From the NCBI GenBank assembly GCA_963749445.1, contig CAVVMJ010000003.1, forward strand, positions 64,715-128,714: 64,000 bases of DNA, read 5' to 3'. The DNA is from an uncultured bacterium (lineage in GTDB: Bacteria > Patescibacteriota > Doudnabacteria > UBA920). A program made the position numbers and the translations under genes. Shown piece by piece: positions 16,685 through 58,600 of the stretch; within the stretch, counting starts at the first letter, position 1, and each line of letters begins with the position of its first letter. The notes below the pieces were generated by a model. The model had not been told where the DNA came from, did no database searches, and saw nothing but the letters and a program-made list of their open reading frames with translations.

Positions 16685-16830
16685 AGAGCCACGCGCCTTG
16701 CCTCCCCATCCCCCCTTTACACTTTTCGCTTTTCGCTTTAAACTTAGCTTAAGCTTATGTTCCGGCTGTCACCCGGAGGCTACACGAAGCCTTGGCGTAG
16801 TGTAGCGGAGCGCCGGAAGAAATTCATCGG
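16685..16830. repeat. GC-rich hairpin-mosaic element, intergenic copy A
   Basis: cctccccatcccccc, ccggctgtcacccgg, and gctacacgaagccttggcgtagtgtagc. It shares the core cgaagccttggcg with copy E at 50391. Confidence 0.5.
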
Positions 16831-16914
16831 CAGATGAAAAATAGACCCGGCCGGCAATCAACCGTTATCTGATAAAATTAAGCAAATTTGAGATGGTACC
16901 GCCCGCGAGGGCTC

Positions 16915-16942
16915 TCAACACCCTTTTTTGGGTGTTTTTATT
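16915..16942 (+). terminator. rho-independent terminator
   Basis: aacaccc-tttttt-gggtgtt followed by tttatttt. Confidence 0.55.
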
Positions 16943-16944
16943 TT

Positions 16945-17253
16945 ATGAATACCAAAAGTTTTTTATTGCACTTTTTTCATTTTGCGATTATCGTCGCTTG
17001 TTGGACTTCGCCTTTCTATTTGGCCTGGCAGATTATTTTTATATTGATTGTCTTTTATTATCTGCAAAATATATTTTTGGGCGGGTGTGTAATAAGCAAA
17101 TTGCAATTTGGAAATAATGACGAAACTATGTATTCTTATTTCCTTACTAAACTGAAAATTAATTACAACAAGAAAAAATTACGGTTTATTACCGACCACA
17201 TCTTCCCTTGGCTGATTTTACTCATTGCCTTGTGGTACCAAAAAATCTTATAG
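16945..17253 (+). CDS. small membrane protein (about 102 aa; DUF2784-like?)
   Basis: MNTKSFLLHFFHFAIIVACW...; three TM helices predicted. The family assignment is tentative. Confidence 0.45.
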   Translation: MNTKSFLLHFFHFAIIVACWTSPFYLAWQIIFILIVFYYLQNIFLGGCVISKLQFGNNDETMYSYFLTKLKINYNKKKLRFITDHIFPWLILLIALWYQKIL

Positions 17254-17262
17254 CTTAATATT

Positions 17263-18087
17263 ATGGCCAATATCATCACCAACAAAATAATTAGGCAGCT
17301 CTCTTTGCCCAAACCCAACTCCCATAAGCGGGACAACGGCAGACTTTTGATTGTGGCAGGGCTGGAACAAAAATATTTTGGCGCTTTGCTCTATTCCATA
17401 ATAACCGCTTCGCGCATAGCCGATTTGGTTTATTTAGTCACCGCGCCGGAAAATAAAAAGTTAATAGAAAAACTGCGGGTTGCCACGGCTGAATTTATGC
17501 CCATCCGCACGCTGGTAAGCGGACGCGCAACCAAAGATATTGACGCGATTTTAATAGGCCCAGGCATGGGAGCAACGGCCACAACCAAAAAATTAACATC
17601 CATAATCCTAAAATCCGGGCAAAAAGCCGTGCTGGACGCGGACGCTTTAAATGTACTTGATAATAAACTAAAAAAATATTTATCGCCGCTGAATATTTTA
17701 ACTCCGCACCACAGAGAATTTTATCGGCTATTTCATATAACACCAACCGCGGAAAACGCCTCAAAAATGGCCAAAAAATATCGCTGCACTATTATATTAA
17801 AAGGGCCGGCTGATGTTGTCGCCTCGCCTAACGGAAAAATTGCTTTAAATAAAACCGGAAACGCGGGGATGACCAAAGGCGGTACCGGCGATGTACTGGC
17901 CGGATTAATCGCCGCCATTTATACTACCAATGACGCATTTACATCCGCCGCGGCCGGAGTTTACCTCAACGGTGCGGCCGGCGATGATTTGCATAAAAAA
18001 GTCGGCACGTTTTATAACGCCGAGGATTTGGCGAATCAAATTCCCCACACTTTACATCAATTGATAAAAAAATCCCATATTTCTTAA
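17263..18087 (+). CDS. nnrD: ADP-dependent NAD(P)H-hydrate dehydratase (YjeF C-terminal / carbohydrate kinase-like)
   Basis: SHKRDNGRLLIVAG, IGPGMG, DADALN, GNAGMTKGGTGDVLAGLIAA. Confidence 0.8.
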   Translation: MANIITNKIIRQLSLPKPNSHKRDNGRLLIVAGLEQKYFGALLYSIITASRIADLVYLVTAPENKKLIEKLRVATAEFMPIRTLVSGRATKDIDAILIGPGMGATATTKKLTSIILKSGQKAVLDADALNVLDNKLKKYLSPLNILTPHHREFYRLFHITPTAENASKMAKKYRCTIILKGPADVVASPNGKIALNKTGNAGMTKGGTGDVLAGLIAAIYTTNDAFTSAAAGVYLNGAAGDDLHKKVGTFYNAEDLANQIPHTLHQLIKKSHIS

Positions 18088-18110
18088 AATCACGGCCGTG
18101 ATTTTAAGAA
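18087..18110 (+). terminator. terminator hairpin after nnrD
   Basis: aaaatcacggccgtgatttt. Confidence 0.5.
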
Positions 18111-18137
18111 ATAACGTAATTTTATGATTGAAATTTT

Positions 18138-20330
18138 ATGATTGAACTCGAAAAAACCTACGACCACAGCAAAGTCGAAGATAAAATTTACAAACAGTGG
18201 ACGGACTCGGGATTTTTTAATCCCGACAATTTACCAGATGCGGACAAGCGCGAACCGTACAGCATTTCCCTGCCGCCGCCGAACGTGACCGGCGTTTTGC
18301 ATATGGGGCACGCATTTGAAAATACCATCCAAGACAGCATAATCCGCTACCAACGGATGAAGGGTAAACGCGCGCTTTGGCTGCCCGGCACCGACCACGC
18401 GGCCATTGCCACGCAGGCTAAATTTGAAAAAGAGCATTACAAAAAACATGAAAAGTCGCGCCATGACTATTCACGCGAAGAATTTTTCAACATGATCCAA
18501 AAATTTGCCCTGGCAAACCAACAGGGAATTTTATCACAACTCCATAAGCTGGGACTGTCTTTGGATTGGAGCAGGCTGGCTTTTACCTTGGACAAAGACC
18601 GCGAATTGGCCGTACGAACTGCTTTTAAAAAAATGTACGAAACCGGGCTGATTTACCGCGGCCACCGCCTGGTCAACTGGGATCCCAAAGCCCAGACTAC
18701 GGTTTCGGATGACGAGATTGAATGGCAGGAAGAAAAAGCGCCGCTTTATTATCTAAAGTATGGCCCGTTCACCATTGCCACGGCCCGGCCGGAAACCAAA
18801 TTTGGCGACAAGTACGTGGTCATGCATCCGGACGACAAGCGCTATAAACAATACAAGCAAGGCGACAAATTGGAACTGGAATGGATTAACGGGCCCGTCA
18901 CCGCGACCATTATCAAAGATAAAGTTATCGATATGGAATTCGGCTCAGGTTGTATGACTATTACACCCTGGCACGATGCCGTAGACTTTGAACTTGCCCA
19001 GCGCCATAAGTTGGATAGCGAACAAATTATTGACGAGCGCGGCATTTTGCTGCCTATTGCCGGGGAATTTGCGGGGGAACACATTAAAAAAGCCAGGCCG
19101 AAAGTCGTAGAAAAACTGCGGGCTAAAGGCCTAATAGAAAAAATAGAAGAGAGTTACGTTCACCGTATCGCCACCAATATGCGCGGCGGCGGGATTATAG
19201 AGCCTCAAATAAAATTGCAGTGGTTTATTGACGTCAACAAAAAATTTATTTTGGAAAATTCCAAAATTTCCGGCATTCCCTCCGGCAGCAAAACCACGTT
19301 AAAGGACATAATGAAAAAAACCGTGGGAAGCGGCCAAATAAAAATTATGCCGGAACGGTTTGAAAAAATATATTTCCATTGGATAGACAACTTGCGCGAT
19401 TGGTGCATTAGCCGGCAAATAATTTACGGCCACCAAATCCCGGTATGGTATAAAAATGAGGAAATTTACTGCGGAACAGAAGTTCCAAAAGGCAAAGGCT
19501 GGATCCAAGATACCGACACGCTTGATACATGGTTTTCTTCGGGCCTGTGGACTTTTTCCACCCTCGGGTGGCCCAATAATACCCAAGACATGCGTCTATA
19601 TCACCCAACTTCCGTAATGATGCCGGGATACGAAATCTTATTCTTTTGGGTTGCGCGCATGATTTTAATGAGCGGGTTTCTGCTTGGCGACATTCCGTTC
19701 CGCCAAGTCTATCTGCACGGCATAGTGCGCGACAGTAAAGGTCAAAAATTCAGCAAGTCCTTAAACAACGGCATTGACCCGCTGGAAATGACCGCCAAAT
19801 ACGGCACCGACGCTTTACGTATGGCTATGGTTTTCGGCGCGGCGCCGGGCAATGACGTAATTTTTGACGAGCAAAAAGTCAAAGGCATGAAGCACTTTGG
19901 CAATAAGCTTTGGAATATTGCGCGGTTTATTTTAGTAAATGATGTTCCCTCCTCCCCTGGCGAGGGGAGGATGTCCGCCGGAGGCGGACAGGAGAGGTTG
20001 CAGCCAATGACTGACGCTGACCGTGCTATTCTTGCCAAGCTCGACGCCACTATCAAGAATGTAACCGATCATTTGGACAACTTCCTCTTGCATGAAGCCG
20101 CTCAGGAAATTTACCAGTTTACCTGGCACGAATTCGCGGATATTTACATTGAGGCCAGCAAAAAACAGTTGGCCGATGAAAAGTTAAGAAAATCCACACT
20201 TTCCACTTTACGCTTTTCACTTTTAACTATCCTTAAACTTCTTCATCCGTTCATGCCCTTTGTCACCGAGGAAATCTGGTCAAAATTAAAGCAAAAAGGA
20301 TTATTAATCGTGGCCGATTGGCCAAAATAA
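18138..20330 (+). CDS. valS: valyl-tRNA synthetase, carrying an in-frame GC-rich element insertion
   Basis: HMGH (PNVTGVLHMGHAF), KMSKS-like KFSKSLNNG, and the editing domain; 730 aa. Confidence 0.9.
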   Translation: MIELEKTYDHSKVEDKIYKQWTDSGFFNPDNLPDADKREPYSISLPPPNVTGVLHMGHAFENTIQDSIIRYQRMKGKRALWLPGTDHAAIATQAKFEKEHYKKHEKSRHDYSREEFFNMIQKFALANQQGILSQLHKLGLSLDWSRLAFTLDKDRELAVRTAFKKMYETGLIYRGHRLVNWDPKAQTTVSDDEIEWQEEKAPLYYLKYGPFTIATARPETKFGDKYVVMHPDDKRYKQYKQGDKLELEWINGPVTATIIKDKVIDMEFGSGCMTITPWHDAVDFELAQRHKLDSEQIIDERGILLPIAGEFAGEHIKKARPKVVEKLRAKGLIEKIEESYVHRIATNMRGGGIIEPQIKLQWFIDVNKKFILENSKISGIPSGSKTTLKDIMKKTVGSGQIKIMPERFEKIYFHWIDNLRDWCISRQIIYGHQIPVWYKNEEIYCGTEVPKGKGWIQDTDTLDTWFSSGLWTFSTLGWPNNTQDMRLYHPTSVMMPGYEILFFWVARMILMSGFLLGDIPFRQVYLHGIVRDSKGQKFSKSLNNGIDPLEMTAKYGTDALRMAMVFGAAPGNDVIFDEQKVKGMKHFGNKLWNIARFILVNDVPSSPGEGRMSAGGGQERLQPMTDADRAILAKLDATIKNVTDHLDNFLLHEAAQEIYQFTWHEFADIYIEASKKQLADEKLRKSTLSTLRFSLLTILKLLHPFMPFVTEEIWSKLKQKGLLIVADWPK
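19944..20012. repeat. GC-rich hairpin-mosaic element copy B, in frame within valS
   Basis: tcctcccc-tggcg-aggggagga and gtccgcc-gga-ggcggac encode SSPGEGRMSAGGGQER. Confidence 0.6.
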
Positions 20331-25816: not shown

Positions 25817-25847
25817 AAATCACAACTTTAATTTTAACTATTCGCCT

Positions 25848-25859
25848 ATTCGCGCGAAT
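25848..25859. promoter_or_regulatory. palindrome ATTCGCGCGAAT site 2, between ArsR-1 and the lipoprotein gene
   Basis: ctattcgcctattcgcgcgaattagagaat. Confidence 0.55.
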
Positions 25860-26119
25860 TAGAGAATATCCAGAACCGATTTAAGTACGCGGCCAAACGG
25901 CCGGTTTAAAGAATAAAACATGCTCAAATTGATTTGTTCACGATCAACAATATCGGCCGTGCGTAAAATCCCCAAATGCTTGGACGTAGCTTTAAACGAC
26001 AGCTTAATTTCTTTGGCAATATCCCCCACCGCGGCCTTATGGTATTGGTGGAGATATCTAACAATGGCCAGCCGGCGGCGGTTAGCCAGAGCTTTTAAGG
26101 TTTTTTCCGTTTGTTTCAT
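25859..26119 (-). CDS. ArsR/SmtB-family transcriptional regulator, paralog 1
   Basis: LANRRRLAIVRYL...VGDIAKEIKLSFKATSKHLGILR. Start taken at MKQTEKT. Confidence 0.8.
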   Translation of the reverse strand: MKQTEKTLKALANRRRLAIVRYLHQYHKAAVGDIAKEIKLSFKATSKHLGILRTADIVDREQINLSMFYSLNRPFGRVLKSVLDIL

Positions 26120-26159
26120 AAATCTGTACCTATAATACCACAAAATCAACTGTTCGCCT

Positions 26160-26222: not shown

Positions 26223-28291
26223 TCAATTACTTAAACTCTGCAAAAATTTCACAATTCTGTTATCCAGCATAATGTCGGCGCCTACGACCGGACATTTTAA
26301 GTACAGTCCTTCCAGGGTGCGGCAGCGGGAGAGAGCGACATAAAGCTGGCCGTGCGCGAATGTGCCGGTGGAAAGGTCTACGCAGACTTTGTCAAATGTT
26401 TTGCCCTGGGCTTTGTGGATGGTTACGGCCCAGGCCAATTTAAACGGATACTGGGTAAAGGTGCCTACGGTCCGGCTATCAATTTTTTGCGTGTCTTTGT
26501 CCAGGTAATATTGGTACATTTCCCAGGTATAAGGCGTGACGTATTCGGTTTCGCCGGTTTCCAGTTCGATGACGATGCTGTCGGATGATGGGGTTTGGTC
26601 TTCGTATTCATCAGAGGTCCCACCTCTCTGCCCCTCATGGGGGCTAGTGAGGGCATCTCCCCTCGCCCCGCCGTCGCCAAGGCTTTGGCGGGCAGGCAGG
26701 GGAGAAGGGAACACTGAATCATCACACGGCACGCCACGGCGTGCCGCTACATCGCCGTTATCGTTATTGTCATCGTTGTTGCCCTTTTCTATCCCCACAA
26801 TCTTGCCCATAGTGCCGTTGACCCAGCGTTTTTGCCTGTCGTTGTTAAGCATCATTATTTGCGCGCCGATTTTTACGCGCAGGTCCAAATCGGTGGGCAA
26901 TTCGCGGTCTTCAAATTTGCCGGACGCGCTGCCGTTATAAATTTTCGCAGGGGATAATATTTTTTCCAGGAAAAATCGTTAACCTTGCGCGCCCGCGCAT
27001 TGGTAGGCGTTAAATAAATCGCGAATTTTTCAAAAGTGAACGTTGCCCCGGCCTCCTGCGAGCGTTGGTTTAATATTATAAGATGTTCCTCGGTGGCCGC
27101 GTTGTTGCGCACGGCGTTCAAAACGTCCAAAAATACCTGATCCTTTTGCCTGTACACCTGTTGCAATTGGATATAATTAAATTTTGCGGTTTTAAAACTC
27201 CGGGAATCAAAAAAATACGGGCTTTGATATTCCTGCATCAGCACGCTTTCGCTGCCGAAATCTTTATCTACCGGCGGCAGCTGATACAAATCGCCGATGA
27301 ATATCATCTGCAATCCGCCAAAGGGCTCATGCGGAGCCGGGCCGTTTAAGCGCAAAAACTTTTCCAAACAATCCAGCAAGTCCGCGCGCACCATGGAGAT
27401 TTCATCGATAATTATCACATTAAGTTTTTGCAGCAACTCAAACTTTGCCGATCCCGGCTTTAACTTCTTTACCCTGTGGACGGTAATGTCCGGCCCAAAG
27501 GCGCAAAAACTGTGGATAGTCTGGCCTTCCACGTTCAAGGCAGCCACGCCCGTGGGCGCCAGCACCACGAGATTCTTTTTGGTGTGGTAACGGAAATATT
27601 GCAGCAAGGTGGATTTGCCCGTGCCCGCCTCGCCGGTTAAAAATAAATTTTGATTTGAATTTTCCAGCAACTCCAGCGCTTTTAGGGCTTCGGGATTTCC
27701 GTTAAAATCCAAGGGCGGGAGTTCCGGCTCATGACGACGAGCCTCTAATCGCGGACGGCCAAAATCCGCCCCTACATCCTCACGTCTATATTTAACCAAC
27801 TCCCCCGCCAGTTGCTCCAGGCGGTTGCGGATAAATTCGCCTTTTACTTTTCCCAACGCATCCGATATCCGTTTAATAAACGCCAAATAAGTTTCGCGCT
27901 TGCCCTGTAAATACTTTTGGTATTCCGCCCGCAAAAAATCGTTTTGGCCTTGCGGGATGGCCTCTTCGGTTTGTTTGTCCAGCTCTTTTTTACGGAACTC
28001 GCCCTGGGCGTAATCCCAACCCGGGACGTCTTGGAAACTTGCAGCCAGCCGCGCCTTGAGCCCGCCGGCCGCGCGGCCAAAATCCAAAATTATTTTGTCT
28101 AAAAACGCGTCAAAATCCCCTGGCTCACCCGCCACGTCGTTTCGCGAACGACTGTGGCCCGCGCAAAAATCCCGGTACAATTTCTTTAGCTTTTCGTCCT
28201 CTTCGGCGTCCCACTTCTTGCCCATGCGCGGATGCTTTTTGCGCAGTTCTTCGAGGTTGGATATTTTATTTTGGCTGATTGTATCTTGCAT
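26223..28291 (-). CDS. Pif1/RecD-like SF1 helicase, interrupted by a +1 frameshift near 26915-26925 and carrying GC element C in frame
   Basis: GEAGTGKST (Walker A), IIIDEISMV, and C-terminal [15 protein letters not shown]. The ORFs 26873..28291 and 26223..26900 overlap; removing one base in gcagcgcgtccggc restores ...[17 protein letters not shown]. Confidence 0.65.
26615..26750. repeat. GC-rich hairpin-mosaic element copy C, in frame within the helicase
   Basis: gcccctcatgggggc, cgccaaggctttggcg, cggcacgccacggcgtgccg. Confidence 0.55.
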
Positions 28292-30298: not shown

Positions 30299-30559
30299 TT
30301 ACAACAGGGTTAAAGTTTGCCTCAGGAGCGTGGGTTTATTTTCGGGCAAAAAATAGAACACGTGCAAACTCTGCTGCTCGTGATCCACAAAGTTTACCGC
30401 GTCCAAAACCCGCAGATGTTTAGAGGTAGATTTAATCCGCAATTTGATTTCCTTGGCAATATCTCCCACCGAAGCTTTGCCACGACTTTTAAGATACTTG
30501 ATTATTGCCAGTCTCCGGCGGTTTCCCAGGGCTTTATATTGTCTTTCAAGTTCTTTCAT
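30299..30559 (-). CDS. ArsR/SmtB-family transcriptional regulator, paralog 2
   Basis: LGNRRRLAIIKYL...VGDIAKEIKLRIKSTSKHLRVL. Start taken at MKELERQ. Confidence 0.8.
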   Translation of the reverse strand: MKELERQYKALGNRRRLAIIKYLKSRGKASVGDIAKEIKLRIKSTSKHLRVLDAVNFVDHEQQSLHVFYFLPENKPTLLRQTLTLL

Positions 30560-30568
30560 ACTGCTAAA

Positions 30569-30608
30569 ATTATACCACATTTTATATCTGGCGCCTATTC
30601 GCACGAAT
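30569..30608 (-). promoter_or_regulatory. ArsR-2 promoter (extended -10 TGGTATAAT) with operator variant ATTCGCACGAAT, site 6
   Basis: Reverse strand reads ATTCGTGCGAATAGGCGCCAGATATAAAATGTGGTATAATTTTAGCAGTATG. Confidence 0.55.
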
Positions 30609-31046: not shown

Positions 31047-31489
31047 AAATTTTGCAACTTAAAAATATTAATTATTATAAATATTCCCGCCCAAGTTATG
31101 CTAAAAATGATTCGGTAACAAAGGACGTCTGTGCATACTATGGGCGAAAGACAACTACAATGGCCGCGGCGGGGGCTTGGGGAGAGGGGAAGCGATGTTT
31201 CTATTATCCCCTCCCTGGTTAACTCCGCAATTTTGCGCGCGACCGCGGGCGCCAAAATATTTTTGCCCACTCCATGGACAATCCGGCAGCAAGGCTGCCC
31301 GGCGGCATTCATGCCCGCAACAAAACTTTCAAGCTCAACCAAAGCTTCCGCCGCCGTCTTCCCGTGCAAATCCAATTCCGGCAGCTGGCCGGACCCGTCG
31401 GCAAGCTCCGCATGACTCCGCCTCACCTGAGCCTCGCTGACCCTTTCCACCGGCGGCAAGCCTTTATTTGGATATTTATCCCTGCGCAT
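30917..31489 (-). CDS. Smr-domain protein; the C-terminal extension reads through a GC-rich element and is uncertain
   Basis: LDLHGKTAAEALVELESFVAGMNAAGQPCCRIVHGVGKNILAPAV. Confidence 0.5.
   Translation of the reverse strand: MRRDKYPNKGLPPVERVSEAQVRRSHAELADGSGQLPELDLHGKTAAEALVELESFVAGMNAAGQPCCRIVHGVGKNILAPAVARKIAELTREGIIETSLPLSPSPRRGHCSCLSPIVCTDVLCYRIIFSITWAGIFIIINIFKLQNLCLNQKARNAEILYFLPTLWKTGIQSPRLKPANPAPFWFTRVS
31085..31112. repeat. direct repeat ii
   Basis: cccgcccaagttatgctaaaaatgattcgg. Confidence 0.45.
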
Positions 31490-31601: not shown

Positions 31602-32270
31602 CTAAACGCTATCAATATCAAATTCATCAGAAAATTCCTCTCCACCCAGTCGTTTCTTCTCCTTTATAGCAATATTAAATAATTTTATCAATTCGTTTTT
31701 TGCTTCCGTGGAATTTGGCTTTAAAAATCCAGAAGCGATTAAATCTATATTCTGCTCAACATAATTTTTCGAATATTTATAGCCCACACCTGACCCGGTT
31801 ATTATTCCCTTATGGTGACAAAGAGTCAGATCAGGTGACCAGAATAATTCATAAACTGAGTACTTGCTATCATAGGCTGTTTTACCACACAAAACAAAAC
31901 CTGCGGCATGAACATCCATTAGATTGGACATTTCTTGTTTATTTCTTTCAAGTTGAAGCAATACATCACTTTCAATAAGGTTTTTGAAATCATTGACGAT
32001 CTTTTTTAGATTCTTCCCCTTATATCCCTTAGACCTCTCAAAGTCTGAACAATATACATTCCAAAATTTGCCGTTAAACTGATTTAAACCATGATTATAA
32101 ATAATTAATGGAATATTTTTAAATTTATATATTTTGTTAAAATTATCCTGATTTTCCACCAAACTATTCGTACGTTTGATTTGTCTTCTTCGATCAGCGC
32201 AAACATATATTCCATTTTTACATAATGCGGTTAAAATTAAAGTCATATTTTTTTGTTGACCACTATACAA
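31602..32270 (-). CDS. HslV/proteasome-beta-like Ntn-hydrolase peptidase
   Basis: N-terminus MTLILTALCKNGIYVCADRRR (Thr right after Met, as in TTIV...GVVLAADRR). Later GIITGSGVGY resembles the HslV GSGG loop. The gene is AT-rich. Confidence 0.5.
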   Translation of the reverse strand: MYSGQQKNMTLILTALCKNGIYVCADRRRQIKRTNSLVENQDNFNKIYKFKNIPLIIYNHGLNQFNGKFWNVYCSDFERSKGYKGKNLKKIVNDFKNLIESDVLLQLERNKQEMSNLMDVHAAGFVLCGKTAYDSKYSVYELFWSPDLTLCHHKGIITGSGVGYKYSKNYVEQNIDLIASGFLKPNSTEAKNELIKLFNIAIKEKKRLGGEEFSDEFDIDSV

Positions 32271-32327
32271 ATTTTAGTATTAAGCAACCCTACACTTAAA
32301 GTAATGGGGCAATTTAATATACGATTT

Positions 32328-32858
32328 TTAATTAACAATATCTCTTATTCTTCTCTTAAACTCCTTTTCAATATCGTTAGAATTAATTTGTTTCCCAAAA
32401 AAGAAACATTTAGCCCTATTTTCTTTTGGAACAACATAGTCAATTAAACTTTTGCCGTAAGACGTTCCGCAATGCACTTGATGAACAAACTCCTTGCCAT
32501 ATTTGACAGGATCGTTAAAATCACAATAATATAAAACCTTGTCGCCTTTTAATTTGAAACTGTGCGAGTCTCCGTGACCAACAAAATACACTTCTTTTAT
32601 ATCTTTATCAACCATTATTTTTTCTATGTCCTCAAAACTTGCTTTTGGATAAAAAGAAAAATTTTGCTTTTTAACATTCAAGTGTTCTACAATCGCCTTG
32701 ATATCACTTTTTAAGAAGTTGTATTTAAACCAAGTTTTAAGTTTGGACCAATCAGATCGTCCTAAAACGATTACTGTCTCTGCAGGTACATTTTGATTGA
32801 ATTTTTTTAAATACCTGTTTACGAAAAAGTTATCGACTAAGCGTATCAATACAAACAA
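32328..32858 (-). CDS. membrane-anchored protein with a possible caspase-like (CHAT/C14) His-Cys dyad; the 5' end appears truncated by the IS
   Basis: EVYFVGHGDSHS followed about 37 aa later by EFVHQVHCGTSYG. The ORF has only a TTG start, and its reading frame continues up to the left end of the IS. Confidence 0.35.
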   Translation of the reverse strand: MFVLIRLVDNFFVNRYLKKFNQNVPAETVIVLGRSDWSKLKTWFKYNFLKSDIKAIVEHLNVKKQNFSFYPKASFEDIEKIMVDKDIKEVYFVGHGDSHSFKLKGDKVLYYCDFNDPVKYGKEFVHQVHCGTSYGKSLIDYVVPKENRAKCFFFGKQINSNDIEKEFKRRIRDIVN

Positions 32859-32880
32859 AAGTGCAACAATGAACGTAATA

Positions 32881-33600
32881 ACTAAGGCTCTAGACTAGAA
32901 GATTTGTTCTGTTGTAGTCTAAAGATGTGATTAAATGGTCAAAACTGACAAAATTTCAATGGGTCAAAGTAAAACACGGTTTTTGTGATGATTTAACTGC
33001 GACCCAAACAGCTAAACTTACAGGAATTAATCGCAACACAGTTAACAAGTACTACAAACTTTTTAGGGAGAAAATCGCCAAACATCAGGAGTCGGTCAGC
33101 AATGGGTTCAGCGGCCAGGTAGAGCTGGATAAAAGTTACTTCGGTGGCAGGAATAAAGGCAGGCGGGGCAGGGGTACAGAGAAGATTCCGGTCTTTGGCA
33201 TTAAAAGGCGTAACGGTAGAGTCTACACCCAAATTATTAAGAATGCCAGTAGCGCCGAAATCAGGCCAATTATCAGGGAGTTTGTGAGGAGAGGCAGTAT
33301 TGTGTATACCGATGGTTGGCGGGCTTACGACGGATTGGTTCTGGATGGCTACAAACATTTTCGGATTAATCATCGAATTTTTCAGTACTCCGACCGTAAA
33401 GGGGCCCACGTTAACGGCATCGAAAACTTTTGGAGCTTTTCCAAACGGCGGTTGGCAAAGTTTAACGGCATTAATCCTAAAAATTTTTACCTACACCTAA
33501 AGGAATGCGAATGGCGCTACAATGAGAAGCCCGATTTGTACAAAAAACTATCATTAATTCTTAAAATCTTCTAGGCAAGAGCCTAACTAATTCAAACATT
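32881..33600 (+). mobile_element. IS1595-family insertion sequence of about 720 bp
   Basis: Single transposase ORF; imperfect terminal inverted repeats aactaaggctct... and ...agagcctaactaatt. Confidence 0.65.
32927..33574 (+). CDS. IS1595-family (ISXO2-like DDE) transposase
   Basis: VELDKSYFGGRNKGRRGRG...VYTDGWRAYDGL...HFRINH. Confidence 0.8.
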   Translation: MIKWSKLTKFQWVKVKHGFCDDLTATQTAKLTGINRNTVNKYYKLFREKIAKHQESVSNGFSGQVELDKSYFGGRNKGRRGRGTEKIPVFGIKRRNGRVYTQIIKNASSAEIRPIIREFVRRGSIVYTDGWRAYDGLVLDGYKHFRINHRIFQYSDRKGAHVNGIENFWSFSKRRLAKFNGINPKNFYLHLKECEWRYNEKPDLYKKLSLILKIF

Positions 33601-33777
33601 ATTACAATTAATATTAATCCAATTGTTTGCATATCTAAAAATTACGTAATAAAATATATAACTATATAAGCCGTCTTTATTCTTTATTATAACAAAAAAC
33701 CGGGCTAATGTCCGATTTTTTGATAATTCTGGTTTCGGTCTCAACAGGGCAATACCCAGATCCGACCTCTGACAAAA

Positions 33778-33951
33778 TTATTTATGCTTGCGGACACCTT
33801 TAAAAAATTTGTTCCGTTTGGAATATTGATCCATGAACAAGTGAGTTTCTGTATCAATCTTAGTATACCGTTTTATTTTTGGATTCCAGACCTGAATCCT
33901 CTTTTTTACCGCACCAATTCGTCCTTTTCCCGGAGGAGGATTTATAGCCAT
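33778..33951 (-). CDS. possible small basic protein (57 aa); not in the track because it is under 60 aa
   Basis: MAINPPPGKGRIGAVKKRIQVWNPKIKRY... with RBS agaggg. Confidence 0.2.
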   Translation of the reverse strand: MAINPPPGKGRIGAVKKRIQVWNPKIKRYTKIDTETHLFMDQYSKRNKFFKGVRKHK

Positions 33952-34092
33952 ATTTATTCACCCTCTTTCCCTATCAATTTTTCGACCTTTAACTTAAATT
34001 TAAGACAGACTCTGTGGATAAACTCGTTTGACTCACTAAGTCATGTCCCCCTATAATAATAGTATAGTCGAAAATAAATCGAAAGTCAAGTT

Positions 34093-35952: not shown

Positions 35953-35967
35953 CAGCACAATCAAATT

Positions 35968-36654
35968 TTAGCTAACTATATCTCTAATAGTTTTAAAAAG
36001 GACGGGTAACTTATTTTCGTATACTCTAAATCCAGTCCCGTGGTTTCGAGCCATGGTGACTTTATCATGGAGCCTTAGGTCAACCAAAATATTTTCGGCT
36101 CTGAATTGATCGGCAAGCAAATCTGGAGATGTCCCTTTCATCAATTGAGCTCTAAAAAAATGAAAATACTCTTTACCGGCTCGTTCCTCAGAAAAAGCCG
36201 AAGCATACAATAAGGCAGGCAATTTTTGAATGAACCTTTCGGTCAATTGTTTCAACTGCCATACAGCGACGATTTCCCCGGAGATATGTCGTACGGATAT
36301 TTCACGATTTGTTACATTTAAAAACAGTCCAGCGCTGTTTGGCTTTAACGACATTGTATAATAAAGTCCAATTCTACCATTTGCATCTTTGCTGCCAAAT
36401 TTTTTTACCGCCTTTAACGGCGGCATTTTCCAAACTTTATTATTAAAAGTAAATAAGGTAATCAAATTCTGAGAATTCGATCGATGGGCTTTAAGCTCAA
36501 CCTTGTGCAAATCCGGCATGGCAATATTATTCTCTTTTAAACCCAAACTTTTTTCCAAGGTGTGTCCTATTCCAGTCGGTCCGTTTCTTTTTGAAGGAAC
36601 AAAACCTTTAGCTTTCAACAATTTGAATTTTTTGATAAATTCTGGTAATTTCAT
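35968..36654 (-). CDS. MvaI/BcnI-family Type II restriction endonuclease
   Basis: KRNGPTGIGHTLEKSLGL..NN...PDLHKVELKAH...LITLFT and C-terminal GTGFRV match the MvaI/BcnI hallmark (GNTGIGKTFEDLL...PDF..IEIK...LTLFT...AFRI). Confidence 0.65.
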   Translation of the reverse strand: MKLPEFIKKFKLLKAKGFVPSKRNGPTGIGHTLEKSLGLKENNIAMPDLHKVELKAHRSNSQNLITLFTFNNKVWKMPPLKAVKKFGSKDANGRIGLYYTMSLKPNSAGLFLNVTNREISVRHISGEIVAVWQLKQLTERFIQKLPALLYASAFSEERAGKEYFHFFRAQLMKGTSPDLLADQFRAENILVDLRLHDKVTMARNHGTGFRVYENKLPVLFKTIRDIVS

Positions 36655-36655
36655 A

Positions 36656-36829: not shown

Positions 36830-36880
36830 AGGTTTATTATTAGTAGTTAGTAGATAGCAGTTAGCATATAGGGCGCTGGA

Positions 36881-36933
36881 TCCCGGCTCCCAGGCCGGGA
36901 TGACCCCGTTAAATCAAAAACAATTTAACGGGG
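36881..36933 (-). terminator. two consecutive hairpins downstream of gene 37076..37852
   Basis: tcccggc-tcccag-gccggga and ccccgttaaat...atttaacgggg. Confidence 0.5.
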
Positions 36934-36945
36934 CAAGCACAATAT

Positions 36946-44583: not shown

Positions 44584-44639
44584 TTGGGTTATTTAAAGAT
44601 TAAAAGATTTAATGATTGAAAGATTGATAATAATAAATT

Positions 44640-44770
44640 TCTAATTGCCCTGATTATTCTAATTATTCCTAAATAAATCCCAATATCCAAGTTCCAAGTT
44701 CCAAGTTAGGCATTAGTCATTGGTGCTTATTTAGGTCAATTAGGTTAATTAAAACAATTAGAATAATTTT
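44640..44770. repeat. second copy of the ~125-bp AT-rich upstream element, here before rpoC
   Basis: ...ttattcctaaataaatcccaatatccaagttccaagttccaagttaggcattagtcattggtgcttatttaggtcaattagg...caattagaataatt; it includes (ccaagtt)x3. Confidence 0.55.
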
Positions 44771-45141: not shown

Positions 45142-45400
45142 ACCGCGCACCACCACTCGCCGCCTCGCCACCCGCGTCCGGTTCTGCCCCTCCGATGCTT
45201 ATCGGAGACTCGACAGAACCGGTCCGTTTTTTTTATGTAAAAGTTCTCTCGGGCTTTTTGCGGAGCTCCCCTCCCCTTCTGAGGGGAGGGTTAGGGAGAG
45301 GTTGTGCCCGACATCGGCTACTGCACCCTCTCTGTCCCGCTCCGCGGGACATCTCCCCCAGAGGGGGAGAAGGCTCCGCGGTTGTCCTTATTTCGGGCGG
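45142..45400. repeat. GC-rich hairpin-mosaic element copy D (intergenic, about 260 bp)
   Basis: ccggttctg...cagaaccgg then T8; ctcccctcccc-ttctg-aggggaggg; gtcccgc-tcc-gcgggac; tctccccc-agag-ggggaga; gctccgcggttgtcctt. Confidence 0.6.
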
Positions 45401-50004: not shown

Positions 50005-51141
50005 ATGCCAAACGTAATCCAAGTACAAAACTTAAAGAAAACCTACAAACTGGCCAAAGGCAAAGAGCTGGAGGCGGTGCGCGGGATAGGGTTTGAGGTG
50101 TTTAAGGGCGAGATTTTTGGGATTTTGGGGCCGAACGGAGCCGGGAAGACCACCACGTTGGAAATCATCGAGTGCCTAAAACCGCAGACTGACGGTGTGG
50201 TTACGGTTTTGGAATTTGATAATTTAAAATCGCCTGACGAAATAAAAAAACGCATTGGCGTGCAGTTGCAGTCCAGCCAGTATTTACACCATCTGAGTTT
50301 GGGGGAATTGTTGGATTTGTTCGCGTCGTTGTATCCAAGGACAGAGGCGGAGCCTCTCCCCCTGTCAGGGGGGAGTACCTCGCGACTTGCCCGACGAAGC
50401 CTTGGCGAAGTCGGGAGCGAGGGGAGGGGGTTGGATATAAATCAGCCGACTCCAACCACCCCGTCCCGCCAAAGCGGGACACCCCTCCTTAAAAAGGAGG
50501 GGAATGCTCCGCGGTTATCCTTTGATTCCAGGATGGGCAAAAAAACGGAATTGTTAAAACTCGTAGGATTAGAAGACAAAATTCACGAAGAATTTGCCAA
50601 CCTCTCCGGCGGGCAGAAACAGAGGTTTACCATTGCCACATCACTTGTCCACGAGCCGCAAATTTTATTCCTTGATGAACCAACCACCGGCCTTGACCCC
50701 AAAGCCCGGCGCGATATGTGGGGGCTGATAAAAACCATCAACGCGCGCGGCATTACCATTGTCTTAACCACCCATTACATGGAAGAAGCGGAGTTTTTAT
50801 GCCACCGCGTAGCCATTATGGATGAGGGCAAAATTTTGGAAATTGACGAGCCTAAAAAATTAATTGACCGTTTGTCCGACACCACGCAAATATCCTTTTT
50901 TACCGACACAAAAATCGACCCCAAGTTATTCTCCGGCATTTCGGAAGTAAAAAAAGTCCACGCTGCTTATCCCAAAGTTGTTTTGGAAATTACCAGTCTG
51001 GATAAAATTTCCGCGGTGGTCAACCTGCTGCGGCAGCATCAAATTATTTTTTACGGTTTTACCGTTAAAACCGCAGCCCTAGAAGACGTTTATTTAGACT
51101 TAACCGGCCGCGCCTACGACGAAGGAGAAAACGATGAATAG
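50005..51141 (+). CDS. ABC transporter ATP-binding protein with an in-frame GC-element insertion of about 60 aa
   Basis: GPNGAGKTT (Walker A), LSGGQKQR signature, ILFLDEPTTGLD (Walker B). Confidence 0.9.
   Translation: MPNVIQVQNLKKTYKLAKGKELEAVRGIGFEVFKGEIFGILGPNGAGKTTTLEIIECLKPQTDGVVTVLEFDNLKSPDEIKKRIGVQLQSSQYLHHLSLGELLDLFASLYPRTEAEPLPLSGGSTSRLARRSLGEVGSEGRGLDINQPTPTTPSRQSGTPLLKKEGNAPRLSFDSRMGKKTELLKLVGLEDKIHEEFANLSGGQKQRFTIATSLVHEPQILFLDEPTTGLDPKARRDMWGLIKTINARGITIVLTTHYMEEAEFLCHRVAIMDEGKILEIDEPKKLIDRLSDTTQISFFTDTKIDPKLFSGISEVKKVHAAYPKVVLEITSLDKISAVVNLLRQHQIIFYGFTVKTAALEDVYLDLTGRAYDEGENDE
50345..50525. repeat. GC-rich hairpin-mosaic element copy E, in frame within the ABC ATPase
   Basis: ctccccc-tgtca-gggggag; cccgacgaagccttggcgaagtcggg; gtcccgcc-aaa-gcgggac; cccctcctt-aaaa-aggagggg; gctccgcggttatccttt. 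Confidence 0.6.
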
Positions 51142-51934: not shown

Positions 51935-52294
51935 TTATTTCAGCGTTGCTATCCGCGTATAATCAGCGGCCCCCAAAGCACTTACCTTAACACCCCATGC
52001 AAACCCTAAAGCTTGAGAGATGGTCACGCCAACCCGCACGCCGGTGTAGCTACCAGGGCCTTTGTTGACATAGATCTTCCTTATTCCCCTCCCCAAGACA
52101 TGGGGAGGGTACCTCGAAGGGGCGGGAAAGGTTGATTTAATCTTTACCGATCGCAAAAACTCATCAAGTTTGGCCAATGTCTCATGCGACTTGTGCGGAT
52201 CAATTTTAAAAACGCGCCAGATGATTTTTTTGCCATCGGCAATTCCAAAAGTCGCCTCATTAAAATCCGTGGTGTCTATATATAGGATCATTGA
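51935..52294 (-). CDS. tsaB: TsaB (YeaZ)-like N-terminal-domain protein with an in-frame GC-element insertion
   Basis: MILYIDTT...GPGSYTGVRVGVTISQALGFAWGVKVSALGA. Confidence 0.55.
   Translation of the reverse strand, partial: SMILYIDTTDFNEATFGIADGKKIIWRVFKIDPHKSHETLAKLDEFLRSVKIKSTFPAPSRYPPHVLGRGIRKIYVNKGPGSYTGVRVGVTISQALGFAWGVKVSALGAADYTRIATLK
52078..52135. repeat. GC-rich hairpin-mosaic element copy F, in frame within tsaB
   Basis: cccctcccc-aagacat-ggggaggg...gaaggggcggg. Confidence 0.55.
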
Positions 52295-55575: not shown

Positions 55576-55707
55576 TTACTCGCCAAAATTTTGCCCAAAC
55601 CGGTTGGGCGAATTTAATTATCAAAATAAAGATTAACAACTTAACTTTTTCAGACTACCCACGCAAAATTTCGGTAGATAAACTCATTTTACCACTATAA
55701 AACCCCG

Positions 55708-55736
55708 TTGACAAAGGCAATTTTTAGGCATAGAAT
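55708..55736 (+). promoter_or_regulatory. sigma70 promoter TTGACA-17-TAGAAT driving the ncRNA candidate
   Basis: gTTGACAaaggcaatttttaggcaTAGAATcc. Confidence 0.55.
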
Positions 55737-55743
55737 CCTATTA

Positions 55744-56138
55744 CTTTGGGTGAGTGCGGGCCGCTGGCAGGTCATAGTTGAGCAGCAGCTTGCCAGCGGC
55801 CTTGATCATACCGCCCTTACAGAAGGGTCTGGTGGCCACCCTGCGACCTCGGGGGTACAACCGAGCCCCGCCTGTGATGATGGTCTCCGAACCCCGGGAA
55901 TCGCCAACGCATCGCGGCAAATCGCAAGGCCCACCAGGGCATAATATTTTTCCCTCAGTTCTCGGGGACCGGATCTGAGGTTCGTGTCGGCGGGCTTCAG
56001 CGGATGGCGAAGCATCCAGACGGTCCCCGTCCAGCTTTCAGTAGGAGGAATTTTTACTTTTTTATTAGGAAGCAACTAATCAATGTCTGCTTCCCCCAGA
56101 CGCTGGTTACCCTGAGCAGCCCTGGGTCTTTTTTTTGT
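55744..56138 (+). ncRNA. candidate structured ncRNA of about 395 nt (identity unknown) between ruvA and uvrB
   Basis: Bounded by the consensus promoter and a terminator (cccag...ctggg followed by T8 at 56095..56138). GC-rich with several stable hairpins (gccgctggca...tgccagcggc; ggggaccg...cggtcccc); no credible ORF. Confidence 0.4.
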
Positions 56139-56344
56139 TCTACGATGATGCTAAAATTATACTGTCATTCCCGCGGAAGCGGGAATCTGTTTTCTGGATT
56201 CCGGATATTTTTGACTGATAATAATCTTTGGCAAAAATTCCGGAATGACATAGCGCTATGAATGAATTCACCCTAAAATCCAAATTCAAACCCGCCCTCC
56301 TTCGCTAAAGCTACGGCGGGCCTAATTCCTTTTATAAAATTTTA

Positions 56345-58450
56345 TTGATATTTATTATCATGGGAAAATTTAAACTAAAATCTAAATTCGCTCCGGCCGG
56401 CGACCAGCCGCAGGCGATTGACGGACTGATGAAATCCATTACCGCAGGCCGCCGCTACCAAACCCTTTTGGGCGTAACGGGCAGCGGCAAGACTTTTACC
56501 ATGGCCAACATTATAGAAAAAATCCAAAAACCCACGCTCGTCATTAGCCACAACAAAACTTTAGCCGCGCAATTAGCCGCCGAGTTCCAAGGATATTTTC
56601 CGGACAACGCGGTGCACTATTTTGTTTCCTACTACGATTACTACCAGCCCGAAGCCTACATTCCGCGGACCGACACTTACATAGAAAAGGACACGCAAAT
56701 CAACGAAGAAATCGACCGTTTGCGCAACGCCGCCACCCAATCCTTGCTGTCGCGGCAGGACGTGTTGATAGTGGCCAGTGTTTCCTGCATTTACGGCTTG
56801 GGCAATCCGGCCAATTATTTGGAACTGTCGCTAAAAATCAAGCAGGGCGAAAGCCTAAAACGGGACAAACTGCTGCGGCGGCTGACGGATTTGCAATATC
56901 ACAGAAACGACATAGATTTGCAGCGCGGCACTTTCCGCGCTCGCGGCGACGTGCTGGAAATTATCCTCTCTTCCGAAGACACCATAATCCGCATGGATTT
57001 TTTTGGCGATATTTTGGAAAAGATTGAACGCCTGGACGCGGTCTCCGGGCACAAAATCGAAGATTTGGACGAGTTTACCATTTTCCCGGCCAAGCACTTT
57101 GTCACGCCCGAGGACAAAATTAAGGAAGCCGCGGAAAATATCCGACTGGAGCTGACCGGCCGGCTTGCCGAACTTAAATCGCAGGGAAAAATTTTGGAAG
57201 CGGCGCGGCTTTTGCAGCGCACCAATTTTGATTTGGAAATGCTCACCAACACCGGTTTTGTGGCCGGCATAGAAAACTACTCCCGCCATATGGAAGGCCG
57301 CGAAGCCGGCAGTCCGCCTTCCACGTTAATAGATTATTTTCCGGATGATTTTTTGCTGTTTATTGATGAATCCCACCAGAGCGTACCGCAAATCGGCGCC
57401 ATGTACGAAGGCGACCGCTCGCGCAAAACCACGCTGGTGGATTACGGTTTCCGCCTGCCTTCCGCTTTGGACAACCGGCCGCTGAAGTTTGAGGAATTTG
57501 AAAAAAAGATCCATCAGGTAGTGTTTGTGTCCGCCACTCCCGCGGAATTTGAAATAGAAAGATCGCTGACCCAAAAAGACACCAAATTTACAACCAAATC
57601 CCGGCGCACCGAAGTCGAGCAAAGCATAATTGACGCCAGACCAAAATTAAAACAAATGGGCCCGCCTTCCATCGTAGAACAAATCATCCGCCCTACCGGC
57701 CTTATTGACCCCACGATTGAGATTAAGCCCATAAAAAACCAAGTGGATGATTTAATTGAGCGCATCAAAGAGCGCATGGAAAATCACCAAAGAGTTTTGG
57801 TGGCAACCCTGACCAAGCGCATGGCCGAAGAGCTGACCGAATATTTAAAGGAAGACGGGATTAAAGTGCAGTACGTGCACAGCGATGTGGACACGTTTGA
57901 ACGTTTGGAAATTTTGCGCGATTTACGTTTGGGAATTTATGACGTTTTGGTCGGAATAAATTTGCTTCGCGAGGGTTTGGACTTGCCCGAAGTCTCTCTT
58001 GTGACAATTCTTGACGCGGATAAAGAAGGTTTTTTGCGCTCTGAAACCTTCTTTATGCAAATGATGGGCCGCGCCGCGCGCCACCAGGAAGGCCACGTGG
58101 TTATGTACGCGGACAAAATCACCGGCTCAATGCAGCGCGCCATTGACGAAACCACCCGCCGCCGCAAACTGCAGGAAGCCTACAACAAAAAACACGGCAT
58201 CACGCCGCAAAGCATCCAAAAAGCCATCGGCGATTCCCGCATGGCCGGCAGCAAGGTAGAAATTGAGCTGGCTGATGATGAAGCCAAACGCCGCGACCCC
58301 GGCAAAATGGATAAACAGGAATTAAAATTTTATCTGGACGAACTGGGAGAACAAATGGACTTAGCCGCCAAGAACCTCGAGTTTGAGCTCGCCGCCCGCC
58401 TGCGCGATAGAATATCAGGAATTAAAAAAGTTAAAAAATTAAAAAAGTAG
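56345..58450 (+). CDS. uvrB: excinuclease ABC subunit B
   Basis: [10 protein letters not shown], helicase motifs, C-terminal UVR domain; 701 aa. Confidence 0.95.
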
Positions 58451-58544
58451 CATCTTGCTTTTTTTATCCAATTTTGCTAAACTCCCTATACGTACAAAAA
58501 ACTTTACACTTTTAACTTTAAACTTTTCATCAACCGATAATAAC

Positions 58545-58600
58545 CTCTCTGTCCCGCCAAAGACGGGACATCTCCCCATTAAATGGGGAGAGTAAGACAC
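58545..58600. repeat. GC-rich hairpin-mosaic element copy G in the rpsT 5' UTR
   Basis: cctctctgtcccgcc-aaaga-cgggac and tctcccc-attaaa-tggggaga. Confidence 0.55.

Follow-up and report, generated by a model that had tools for sequence, protein, structure and literature searches.

The 64,000-nucleotide (nt) stretch of contig CAVVMJ010000003.1 analyzed here (hereafter, the window), which comes from an uncultured bacterium of the Doudnabacteria, carries GC-rich segments built from recurring hairpins, several of which lie inside protein-coding genes. We consider these segments to be, most probably, non-autonomous selfish DNA: mosaics of hairpins, similar in behavior to the Rickettsia palindromic elements (RPEs), that are tolerated in frame within the loops and linkers of host proteins. 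More tentatively, the architecture of related units in other genomes and their association with genes of the DUF559 family suggest that a DUF559 nuclease might mobilize or maintain both complete units and derivatives without an open reading frame (ORF), such as elements D and E described below. An RPE-like selfish reading had been proposed in an earlier note on this DNA, and it is supported, in that the insertions are lineage-specific, GC-rich, palindromic and tolerated in frame, with neither an orientation bias nor a match to an Rfam family.

A family of hairpins in the window

The hairpin modules form a non-random family that occurs far above chance. When motifs were counted on both strands of the window and compared with expectations from shuffled sequence, GTCCCG-N3-9-CGGGAC was found four times against 0.02 expected, and CTCCCC-N2-10-GGGGAG six times against 0.01. 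Perfect GC-rich double hairpins in tandem occurred four times (Table 1), and 30 dinucleotide shuffles gave 0.03 on average. These counts confirm that the modules described in the earlier note are real. The loci are named A (at 16675), B (in valS), C (in a Pif1-like helicase gene), D (at 45258), E (in an ATP-binding cassette (ABC) transporter ATPase gene), F (in tsaB), G (near rpsT) and H (in an Smr-domain gene). Sequence blocks recur among them: GCTCCGCGGTTRTCCTT is present at 45373 and 50506, with a degenerate, inverted copy at 50337, and CGAAGCCTTGGCG at 16785 and 50395, with its reverse complement, bearing one mismatch, at 26675. Pairwise, C and E are alike over 39 nt (87% identity, on opposite strands), D and E over 17 nt, and A and E over 14 nt, while D and G have two 14-mers in common. 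The similarity between the window copies is therefore patchy, and "mosaic" is an apt term for them; because the copies are mosaic, a generic repeat finder did not place the family among the 20 largest repeat families of the window. A scan for GC islands was dropped and replaced by hairpin and descriptor scans, since it was noisy because coding DNA in the window is often 65–70% GC.

The similarity also withstood formal alignment. An nhmmer profile trained on five elements, all from other Patescibacteria genomes and none from the window, recovered element E (50455-50530, E-value 8.4e-17; 50332-50384, E-value 4.7e-4), element D (45330-45390, E-value 6.6e-4) and element G (58544-58590, E-value 5e-3); the valS copy was weak by sequence (E-value 2.1). 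In a MAFFT alignment of 55 core motifs the 3′ arms of the second hairpin (H2) were out of register, so no covariance model was used, and the descriptor scan with shuffles and nhmmer took its place.

When folded as single-stranded DNA, elements E (z = -6.6), D (-7.0), C (-6.4), G (-6.0) and B (-4.8) were much more stable than their shuffles, and the loci A (-1.8), F (-1.2) and H (-0.6) were not. Of the eight loci first listed, A to G are kept, and the one called likely (H, 31163-31220) is rejected both as an insertion and as a family member, given the native length of the Smr C-terminus, a frame change inside C-runs and the poor fold. The span of 45142-45400 first assigned to D was too wide, the defined element being 45258-45389. 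Every perfect hairpin with homopyrimidine and homopurine arms in the window (9/9) has its pyrimidine arm first. This polarity is identical on both DNA strands.

Circularly permuted architecture

The complete element, as seen in Doudnabacteria and at other Patescibacteria loci, has the order P1a-H1-A-H2-H3-H4-H5-P1b. Elements D and E consist of the same modules in circular permutation, H3b-H4-(H5/M3)-P1b-spacer-P1a-H1-H2-H3a, an order in which the arms of H3 form both a terminal inverted repeat (TIR) and the closing stem. The TIRs of E are AAGGACAGAGGCGGAGC and GCTCCGCGGTTATCCTT, and in other genomes the ends are CTCCAACCACC and GGTGGTTGGAG. Folded as single-stranded DNA, E reaches -53.9 kcal/mol with its terminal arms closing the fold, and its nhmmer matches stand in permuted order relative to the model; D folds into a closing stem with four hairpins. 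The elements are circularly permutable hairpin rosettes and not TIR-bounded units of one fixed order.

The M3 module has a constant center, GAAGCCTTGGCG, and a stem that differs in every copy (CTACAC, CCCGAC, CCCGCC and GTCCGAC were seen). The center reads GAAGCTTTAGCG in L053, a locus of another Doudnabacteria genome, and in L001, one of three relatives (L001, L002 and L003) whose loci are syntenic with the window in the order rpoC-rpoB...ABC ATPase-permease-tsaB-mur ligase-femAB-ruvA-uvrB-rpsT. Locus A is related to E through M3 only (14-nt identity), and F consists of one perfect hairpin of 9 base pairs (bp), CCCTCCCC-N7-GGGGAGGG (52087-52109), plus degenerate sequence. Element G is absent upstream of rpsT in both L001 and L003.

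In-frame inserts in host genes

Comparison with relatives or with a solved structure bears out the claim of in-frame insertion in four coding sequences, those of the ABC ATPase, valyl-tRNA synthetase (ValRS), TsaB and the Pif1-like helicase. The names borne by ABC ATPase and ValRS homologues assign the window to Patescibacteria, near Candidatus Doudnabacteria. First, the window ABC ATPase has 378 amino acids, against an orthologue base length of 304–321, and the surplus corresponds to the 62 codons at 50337-50522, close to the 60 or so residues estimated earlier; it lies between LFASLYP and the helix preceding the signature motif. ABC proteins of at least 330 amino acids make up about 31 of the best 120 matches, and in the aligned long subset the extra residues occur at the same site as the window insert, with different sequences. 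At this site L001 has two CCCTCCCC/GGGGAGGG-type hairpins, L002 (10338-10450) has a dimer of TGTC-tagged repetitive extragenic palindromic (REP) sequences with the palindrome GTGTCATTGCGAG...CTCGCAATGACAC in the form TGTC-ATTGCGAG, and L003 has no insert; the homologue P0013 carries a homologous insert in which modules have been gained and lost. The AlphaFold2 model of the window protein, computed from the alignment of these proteins, has a confident ABC fold in which residues 114–174 form an unstructured surface loop (predicted local distance difference test score, pLDDT, below 50) between confident helices, in keeping with the expectation that inserts would occupy surface loops.

Second, the ValRS insert lies where a linker joins the catalytic domain to the anticodon-binding domain (variable segment about 19946-20012), a hot spot at which relatives hold several different hairpin-derived peptides. 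The valS DNA of a further relative, the 85%-identical L202, which is syntenic with the window around this gene, has conserved flanks and, between sharp boundaries, a wholly different palindromic insert of similar length. The L202 insert (~4960-5020) contains AGCCCATTTATGGGCT/AGCCGATAAATCGGCT hairpins and is in frame. The peptides predicted at the insert junctions are ...TPLLKKEGNAPR... in the ABC ATPase and ...SSPGEGR... in ValRS. Third, the TsaB insert of 14–16 amino acids is absent from all three syntenic orthologues, and the TsaB of L002 has another insert at a different place in the protein. Fourth, residues 43–105 of the C-terminal ORF of the Pif1-like helicase have no counterpart in the solved homologue 8bns_A, in which the flanking residues are contiguous. 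The lineage specificity that had been anticipated is evident from the orthologue alignments of the ABC ATPase, ValRS and TsaB, where relatives either lack the inserts or have different palindromic elements at the same sites. The FemAB protein of L001 (14891-16156) contains a 36-residue in-frame insert with the M3-type peptide EGEALAKAD.

In other Doudnabacteria, the full element also occurs in frame and in sense orientation inside long ORFs; judging by eye from the flanking translations, we took these genes to resemble nfo (in two species, at one and the same site), gatB and murF. The full-length in-gene copies inspected have the same sense and the same entry frame, which yields (P)TTPSR...GTPLL.KEG; with four independent copies this agreement is suggestive. 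Read in six frames, every element is free of stop codons in three or four frames, and frame-preserving copies would therefore be easily tolerated.

Distribution across bacteria

The core of the element, consisting of the pyrimidine tract, the GTCCCGC hairpin and the pyrimidine/purine hairpin, was found in over 100 species, representing 10 phyla or more. The exact pattern GTCCCGC-N2-7-CGGGACAYCYCYCC, scanned with one genome per species, gave at least 114 loci (L004-L117), against about 13 expected by chance on our own uniform-composition estimate. They belong to Bacteroidales, Flavobacteriales, Anaerolineales, Armatimonadia, Terriglobia, Verrucomicrobia, Phycisphaerales, Ignavibacteria, Nitrospinota, Alpha- and Gammaproteobacteria and many lineages of Patescibacteria, and the elements are multi-copy within genomes. 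The 3′ arm of H2, which the pattern does not require, is present in 101 of the 115 matches listed. The H1 sequence is identical across phyla; stems are kept and loops vary. That the core is nearly identical in sequence in Bacteroidales, Anaerolineales and Patescibacteria suggests either a trans-acting factor common to them or frequent horizontal transfer. Phages were considered as the vector and rejected, because 2.9 million viral contigs contained only one convincing copy. In Bacteroidales, the core lies inside a longer intergenic repeat, ttctgtttcgggagaaaaCCCCTCTGTCCCGC... (L116, ~840-1010; L031, ~2480-2600), and is sometimes arrayed head to tail, with no spacers and a unit length of about 57 nt.

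The suggestion that such elements had not been described for this kind of genome needs qualification: we found no such report for Patescibacteria in the literature searched, but the core is not peculiar to this genome, and intragenic REPs are known beyond Rickettsia (PMC3733652). Literature searches for the elements in Patescibacteria, for DUF559 in connection with dispersed repeats and for the motif sequence returned nothing relevant, which is no proof of novelty.

Association with DUF559 nuclease genes

Hairpins of this family are physically associated with DUF559 genes. When ORFs near the 114 motif loci were clustered, the single recurrent neighbor, besides orthologous loci of Mesorhizobium, was a protein of ~115 amino acids that matches PF04480 (DUF559) with E-values of 1e-33 to 1e-37. 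None of the five DUF559 ORFs at these loci is more than 270 nt away from the motif, which brackets them in the arrangement hairpins-P1b, ORF, P1a-H1-H2. The reciprocal search, starting from 80 DUF559 loci collected from metagenomes by protein similarity (L118-L197), showed a pyrimidine/purine hairpin within 150 nt at 68 of the 80. Hairpin density was 4.6–7.3 per kb within 150 nt of these genes and 0.1–0.4 per kb beyond 400 nt, a 20–30-fold enrichment. Hairpins stood on both sides of 47 of the 80 genes, and 163 were pyrimidine-first as against 5 purine-first. Exact inverted repeats of at least 12 nt linked the two flanks of the same gene in 33% of cases, compared with 0.6% in mismatched flank pairs; a typical pair is GGGGTGGTGGTGT...ORF...ACACCACCCCC.

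The clearest link to the window is provided by L053, in which the order is H3b-M3-H4-H5-P1b, a DUF559 ORF, and P1a-H1-H2-H3a. Its arms are identical to those of element E at 58 of 67 and 60 of 70 positions (86–87%), and 360 nt stand where E has a 14-nt spacer. Because D and E have the module order of this unit, with a spacer of 14–24 nt in place of the ORF, they look like ORF-less derivatives of it. Three DUF559 paralogues were found on one 372-kb contig, and DUF559 proteins of Patescibacteria are about 60% identical to those of Bacteroidota, Nitrospirota or Opitutaceae. A homing endonuclease of a group I intron is among the known members of the Vsr/DUF559 clade (PMC3424549).

Proposed mechanism and points against it

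How might such elements spread and persist? We propose that a complete unit comprises the closing stem P1, the conserved hairpin H1 (GTCCCGC..GCGGGAC), the pyrimidine/purine hairpins H2–H5 and sometimes a nested M3, the 5′ arm of each hairpin being pyrimidine and its 3′ arm purine, and that all of them together fold into a closed rosette. The complete unit would hold, in the loop of P1, the gene for a DUF559 endonuclease (Vsr-like, PD-(D/E)xK), and this nuclease may act on hairpin or cruciform DNA and thereby mobilize or maintain the units. Copies would land in intergenic DNA and in genes alike. Inside a gene, a copy would survive only if its length keeps the frame, its GC-rich sequence is free of stops and it sits in a surface loop or a linker, and it would then be translated as a disordered peptide rich in Pro, Ser, Gly and Arg. 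The ABC site after LFASxY and the ValRS linker are repeated targets of different element families. On a larger scale, one may envisage a mobile cassette that crosses phyla, with the DUF559 gene in the loop of a GC-rich multi-hairpin scaffold in which every hairpin has its pyrimidine arm first. Opening of the unit at one loop or another would produce the permutations, and ORF-less derivatives would disperse from it, to be translated within essential proteins in streamlined Patescibacteria genomes; we regard this picture as possible but provisional.

Several observations count against these proposals. No DUF559 ORF is present in the window, so that its copies are ORF-less relatives at most. In blastn comparisons between the 80 DUF559 loci, similarity fades 30–100 nt from the ORF, and the unit boundaries are consequently not defined by comparison. 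The hairpins might also gather near DUF559 genes for some other cause, for instance by being favored targets or by acting as terminators. The two circular permutations, with ends at P1 or at H3, lack a demonstrated mechanism. We saw no transposition event, target-site duplication or near-identical pair of empty and filled sites, and the sequences flanking E, B and the copies in L016-L094 showed no evident direct repeat, no exact empty site being among the comparisons. Because the window copies are diverged mosaics with identical blocks of 14–39 nt, recent activity is unproven. Translation of the inserts is assumed.

The assembly itself appears to contain indel errors. Single-base frame changes split the essential genes rpoB (~47740), rpoC (~43030 and ~42790), pif1 (~26950) and polA (62887-63964), as well as smr (~31170-31190), mostly in homopolymer runs (T6 in rpoB, T5 in pif1 and a G-run in rpoC). 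Since relatives keep single intact ORFs, these look like assembly errors; none of the frameshifts in the split genes falls within a hairpin element, but the in-frame status of the inserts is read from an imperfect assembly.

Alternative explanations

Could the segments instead be elements of the REP type, or of the REPIN type, moved by a REP-associated tyrosine transposase (RAYT; IS200/IS605-like, Y1) or another classical transposase, the DUF559 link being incidental, for instance as a landing site? GTAG/CGTC REPs are characteristically short GC-rich palindromes that cluster as mosaics and now and then lie within genes (PMC3733652), the TGTC-tagged REP dimer in the L002 ABC gene shows that REP-type elements do reach the same sites, and an IS1595 transposase lies within the window. 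We nevertheless consider this explanation unlikely. No Y1 or RAYT domain was detected with Pfam among the 30 window ORFs scanned, no RAYT appeared among the recurrent ORF clusters beside the 114 motif loci, where DUF559 was the sole recurrent neighbor, and H1 shows none of the defining features of such REPs (an unpaired GTAG/CGTC tag, a stem that starts with AT, a CCA tail). The IS1595 copy was rejected as the mobilizer because its TIR (AATAACTAAGGCTCT...) is unrelated to the elements.

A second alternative is that the segments are native variable linkers whose hairpins formed on the spot, when replication slipped or switched templates in coding DNA that is GC-rich and of low complexity. It would fit the length variability of the ABC and ValRS sites in nearly all relatives, the shortness of the blocks common to the window copies and the fact that no target-site duplications were identified. 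In-place formation predicts locus-specific sequences, however, and not a shared family or a polarity of 163 to 5; an ordered module set with 86–87% identity recurs from genome to genome, both in genes unrelated to one another and between genes, and H1 is invariant from phylum to phylum. This explanation is already disfavored and, in our judgment, very improbable.

We consider it equally improbable that the elements are functional structured RNAs or terminators (mRNA stabilizers, attenuators or pyrimidine-motif triplex RNAs) under selection, with the in-gene copies as a side effect. Some hairpins of this type do resemble terminators, being followed by T-runs (e.g., 844-862), and the conservation of stems with variable loops would suit an RNA. 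Among 60 intergenic copies in other genomes, however, there was no orientation bias toward the neighboring genes (the four arrangements were counted 17, 14, 10 and 8 times), which argues against a cis-regulatory RNA, and the copies in coding regions occur in both orientations. A search of the window and 18 loci against Rfam 15 gave only tRNA, rRNA and T-box matches and no family for the element; the best sub-threshold match was the serC leader, at 18–19 bits against a gathering score of 35.

A further point in favor of an RNA is that, across L004-L117, the 7 nt before H1 co-vary with the 5′ arm of H2 in the manner of a mirror repeat, which is what a triplex requires. The pairs were CCCCTCT/TCTCCCC (24 times), CCCCTCC/CCTCCCC (15) and CCACCCC/CCCCTCC (14). 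By position, u7-h1 was TT in 38, CC in 50 and other in 10; u5-h3 was TT in 63, CC in 22 and other in 13; and u3-h5 was CC in 43 and AT in 29. The window sites compared for the mirror repeat were 45326-45370, 50456-50502 and 58544-58591. The geometry is that of a parallel pyrimidine-motif triplex, with only 4–5 underlying subfamilies. We did not adopt the triplex interpretation, because the covariation stems from so few independent subfamilies and because A occurs where a U.A-U triple needs U. Six consecutive C+.G-C triples are, moreover, unlikely at neutral pH.

Finally, bacteria of the candidate phyla radiation are known for intervening sequences in their rRNA genes, and the segments might likewise be removed after transcription or translation in the manner of introns or inteins, leaving mature proteins without the inserts. 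Even though nucleases of the DUF559 clade can be encoded by introns (PMC3424549), this is the least credible explanation, for the inserts are simple hairpins of 42–190 nt with no group I or II core (no Rfam match) and no intein blocks or Cys/Ser-Asn junction residues, and the in-gene copies are frame-keeping and stop-free, which excision does not require.

Significance

If the segments are selfish DNA, as is probable, then the genomes of Patescibacteria, among the most reduced of free-living-type bacteria, tolerate such DNA in valS, tsaB, an ABC ATPase gene and a helicase gene. This bears on the origin of disordered protein segments and on annotation, since many "lineage-specific insertions" may be repeat-derived. 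The DUF559 link, being tight and reciprocal, provides a very large family whose function is unknown with a hypothesis that can be tested; if true, it would be the first function for the family and would make DUF559 the mobilizing enzyme of tag-less REP-like repeats without a RAYT, whose mover is an open question in the REP literature. The elements probably also break short-read assemblies, many DUF559 matches being on contigs of 0.6–2 kb.

Other features of the window

The coordinates of the elements and of the annotated neighboring genes are given in Table 1.

Table 1. Hairpin elements, their modules and other annotated features (window coordinates)
Feature	Coordinates	Strand	Location or type	Modules and remarks
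Element E	50337-50522	+	In frame, ABC-transporter ATPase gene; 186 nt = 62 codons	H3 3′ arm 50337-50353; H4 CTCCCCC..GGGGGGAG 50356-50375; H5 50379-50421 enclosing M3 50390-50415; P1 3′ strand 50421-50435; 14-nt spacer 50436-50449; P1 5′ strand CTCCAACCACCCC 50450-50462; H1 GTCCCGC-CAAA-GCGGGAC 50463-50480; H2 CCCCTCC..GGAGGGG 50482-50502; H3 5′ arm GCTCCGCGGTTATCCTT 50506-50522
Element D	45258-45389	+	Intergenic, between 93-aa ORF and rpoB 3′ end	Order as E; H3 3′ arm GCGGAGC 45260-45266; H4 45268-45290; P1 3′ strand 45293-45301; 24-nt spacer; P1 5′ strand 45326-45333; H1 45334-45350; H2 45352-45370; H3 5′ arm GCTCCGCGGTTGTCCTT 45373-45389
Element G	58544-58591	+	Intergenic, 22 nt upstream of rpsT; bare core	Pyrimidine tract CCTCTCT; H1 GTCCCGCC..GACGGGAC; H2 TCTCCCC..GGGGAGA
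Element B	19946-20012	-	In frame in valS; core on minus strand, antisense	CCTCTCCT; H1 variant GTCCGCC-TCC-GGCGGAC (co-varied); AT; H2 CCTCCCC..GGGGAGG; encodes SSPGEGRMSAGGGQER
Element C	26586-26774	-	63-aa in-frame insert, 2B domain of Pif1-like helicase	Hairpins 26614-26626; 26630-26644; CTCCCCT..AGGGGAG 26657-26704 enclosing M3 26668-26691; 26727-26746
Element F	52085-52126	-	14–16-aa in-frame insert, tsaB	
Locus A	16675-16818	+	Intergenic	Purine-first hairpin ATGGGGAG..CTCCCCAT 16675-16709; outer stem TTCCGGC..GCCGGAA 16760-16818 enclosing M3 CTACAC-GAAGCCTTGGCGTA-GTGTAG 16780-16805
Locus H (rejected)	31163-31220	-	Smr-domain gene	Imperfect purine/pyrimidine hairpin, 16-nt loop
Tandem double hairpins	19951-19990; 45334-45370; 50463-50502; 58551-58591			
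Complete element (other genomes)				5′ side: P1a CTCCAACCACCCC, H1 GTCCCGC-N4-GCGGGAC, A, H2 CCCCTCC-N5-GGAGGGG; 3′ side: H3 GCTCCGC..GCGGAGC, H4 CTCTCCTCC..GGAGGAG, H5, P1b GGGAGGTGGTTGGAG
IS1595-family transposase	32927-33574			Own TIR 32877-32905/33564-33592
LexA-S24 peptidase fused to N4/N6 DNA methylase	34093-35952			
MvaI/BcnI-type restriction endonuclease	35968-36687			

The last three genes lie in a low-GC island (32200-37000, 30–39% GC), which is probably a horizontally acquired restriction-modification island. A palindromic box, TTATTCGCGCGAATTAG, occurs four times (24706, 25832, 26144 and 29477), and the copies look like operator sites; those at 25832 and 26144 flank an ORF for an ArsR-like helix-turn-helix protein (25859-26149), and a second such ORF is found at 30299-30604. 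An AT-rich direct repeat, ACTTTyCACTTTTAACTTTTCACT, is present at 10284, 16714, 20198, 54680 and 58501; two copies lie beside the hairpin loci A and G, and two are inside valS and femAB, with no added length. Another AT-rich repeat of about 115 nt has two intergenic copies (8336-8449 and 44635-44763) that are 76–88% identical. An ORF of 992 amino acids (915-3893) consists of 282-nt tandem units with weak pilus-N-terminal-like Pfam matches and is probably the gene of a surface protein built of repeats; after it come, at 844-862, a CCCCTCC-AACTT-GGAGGGG hairpin and a T-run that resemble a terminator.

Comparison with known systems

The closest parallel is provided by the RPEs, which, according to the accounts of Ogata et al. 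(2000) given in PMC10969869 and PMC3733652, are palindromic repeats inserted in frame in unrelated housekeeping genes. In both cases a bacterium with a small genome carries extra peptides, presumably translated in our elements, that are compatible with the protein fold, and several families coexist; the ABC, ValRS, TsaB and Pif1 inserts are, like RPEs, palindromic repeats in frame where orthologues lack them. In the same accounts, RPE-1 is about 150 bp long with a conserved encoded peptide, and RPE-4 and RPE-6, whose host is AT-rich, are REPs with a CGTC tag. Unlike RPEs, the elements described here are GC-rich pyrimidine/purine rosettes with a GTCCCGC core, are circularly permutable, occur in many phyla and are linked to DUF559. 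No sequence relation to RPEs was found, the CGTC/TGTC tag and AT-starting stem of RPE-4 and RPE-6 being absent; the two are set apart by description.

REPs and bacterial interspersed mosaic elements resemble our elements in combining palindromic units of 20–40 bp as mosaics in several phyla, with some copies inside genes. Several phyla are already known to harbor REPs within genes, those for tRNA synthetases and for repair among them, and no transposase is known for CGTC REPs (Di Nocera et al. 2013, PMC3733652). GTAG/CGTC REPs have an unpaired tag (GTAG or CGTC; TGTC/CCTC), an AT-starting stem of 8–9 bp, a loop of 4–5 nt and a CCA tail, whereas H1 has the form (C/T)GTCCCGC-N3-6-GCGGGACA, in which GTC is paired and there is neither an AT-starting stem nor a CCA tail. 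REPs also lie mostly downstream of genes, with a bias that we did not see in our elements.

A small gene bracketed by repeats that are dispersed elsewhere in the genome recalls REPtrons, in which a RAYT gene is flanked by its own REPs, and the parental IS elements of MITEs (transposable elements of the miniature inverted-repeat kind, which are ORF-less derivatives of such parents), and the dispersed copies look like internal-deletion derivatives, as in the comparison of L053 with E. Element E has terminal inverted repeats as MITEs do. A MITE also has a longer parent with the same ends that encodes its mobilizing enzyme; in L053 the arms enclose a DUF559 ORF, but DUF559 is not a known transposase. 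The bracketed gene here encodes a DUF559/Vsr-like PD-(D/E)xK nuclease and not a Y1 or DDE transposase, and neither target-site duplications nor defined termini were found. The GC clusters and double-hairpin elements of fungal mitochondria are likewise short, GC-rich, mobile palindromes in AT-richer genomes, sometimes in frame, but they are organellar, are unrelated in sequence and have no associated gene for a DUF559-family nuclease. Lastly, in contrast to the Vsr-like homing endonucleases, free-standing or encoded in introns (I-Bth0305I class, PMC3424549), the units found here have no intron or intein context and occupy many unrelated sites, which is not classical homing; what they have in common with these enzymes is a small selfish nuclease gene of the same clade that is multi-copy and horizontally spread.

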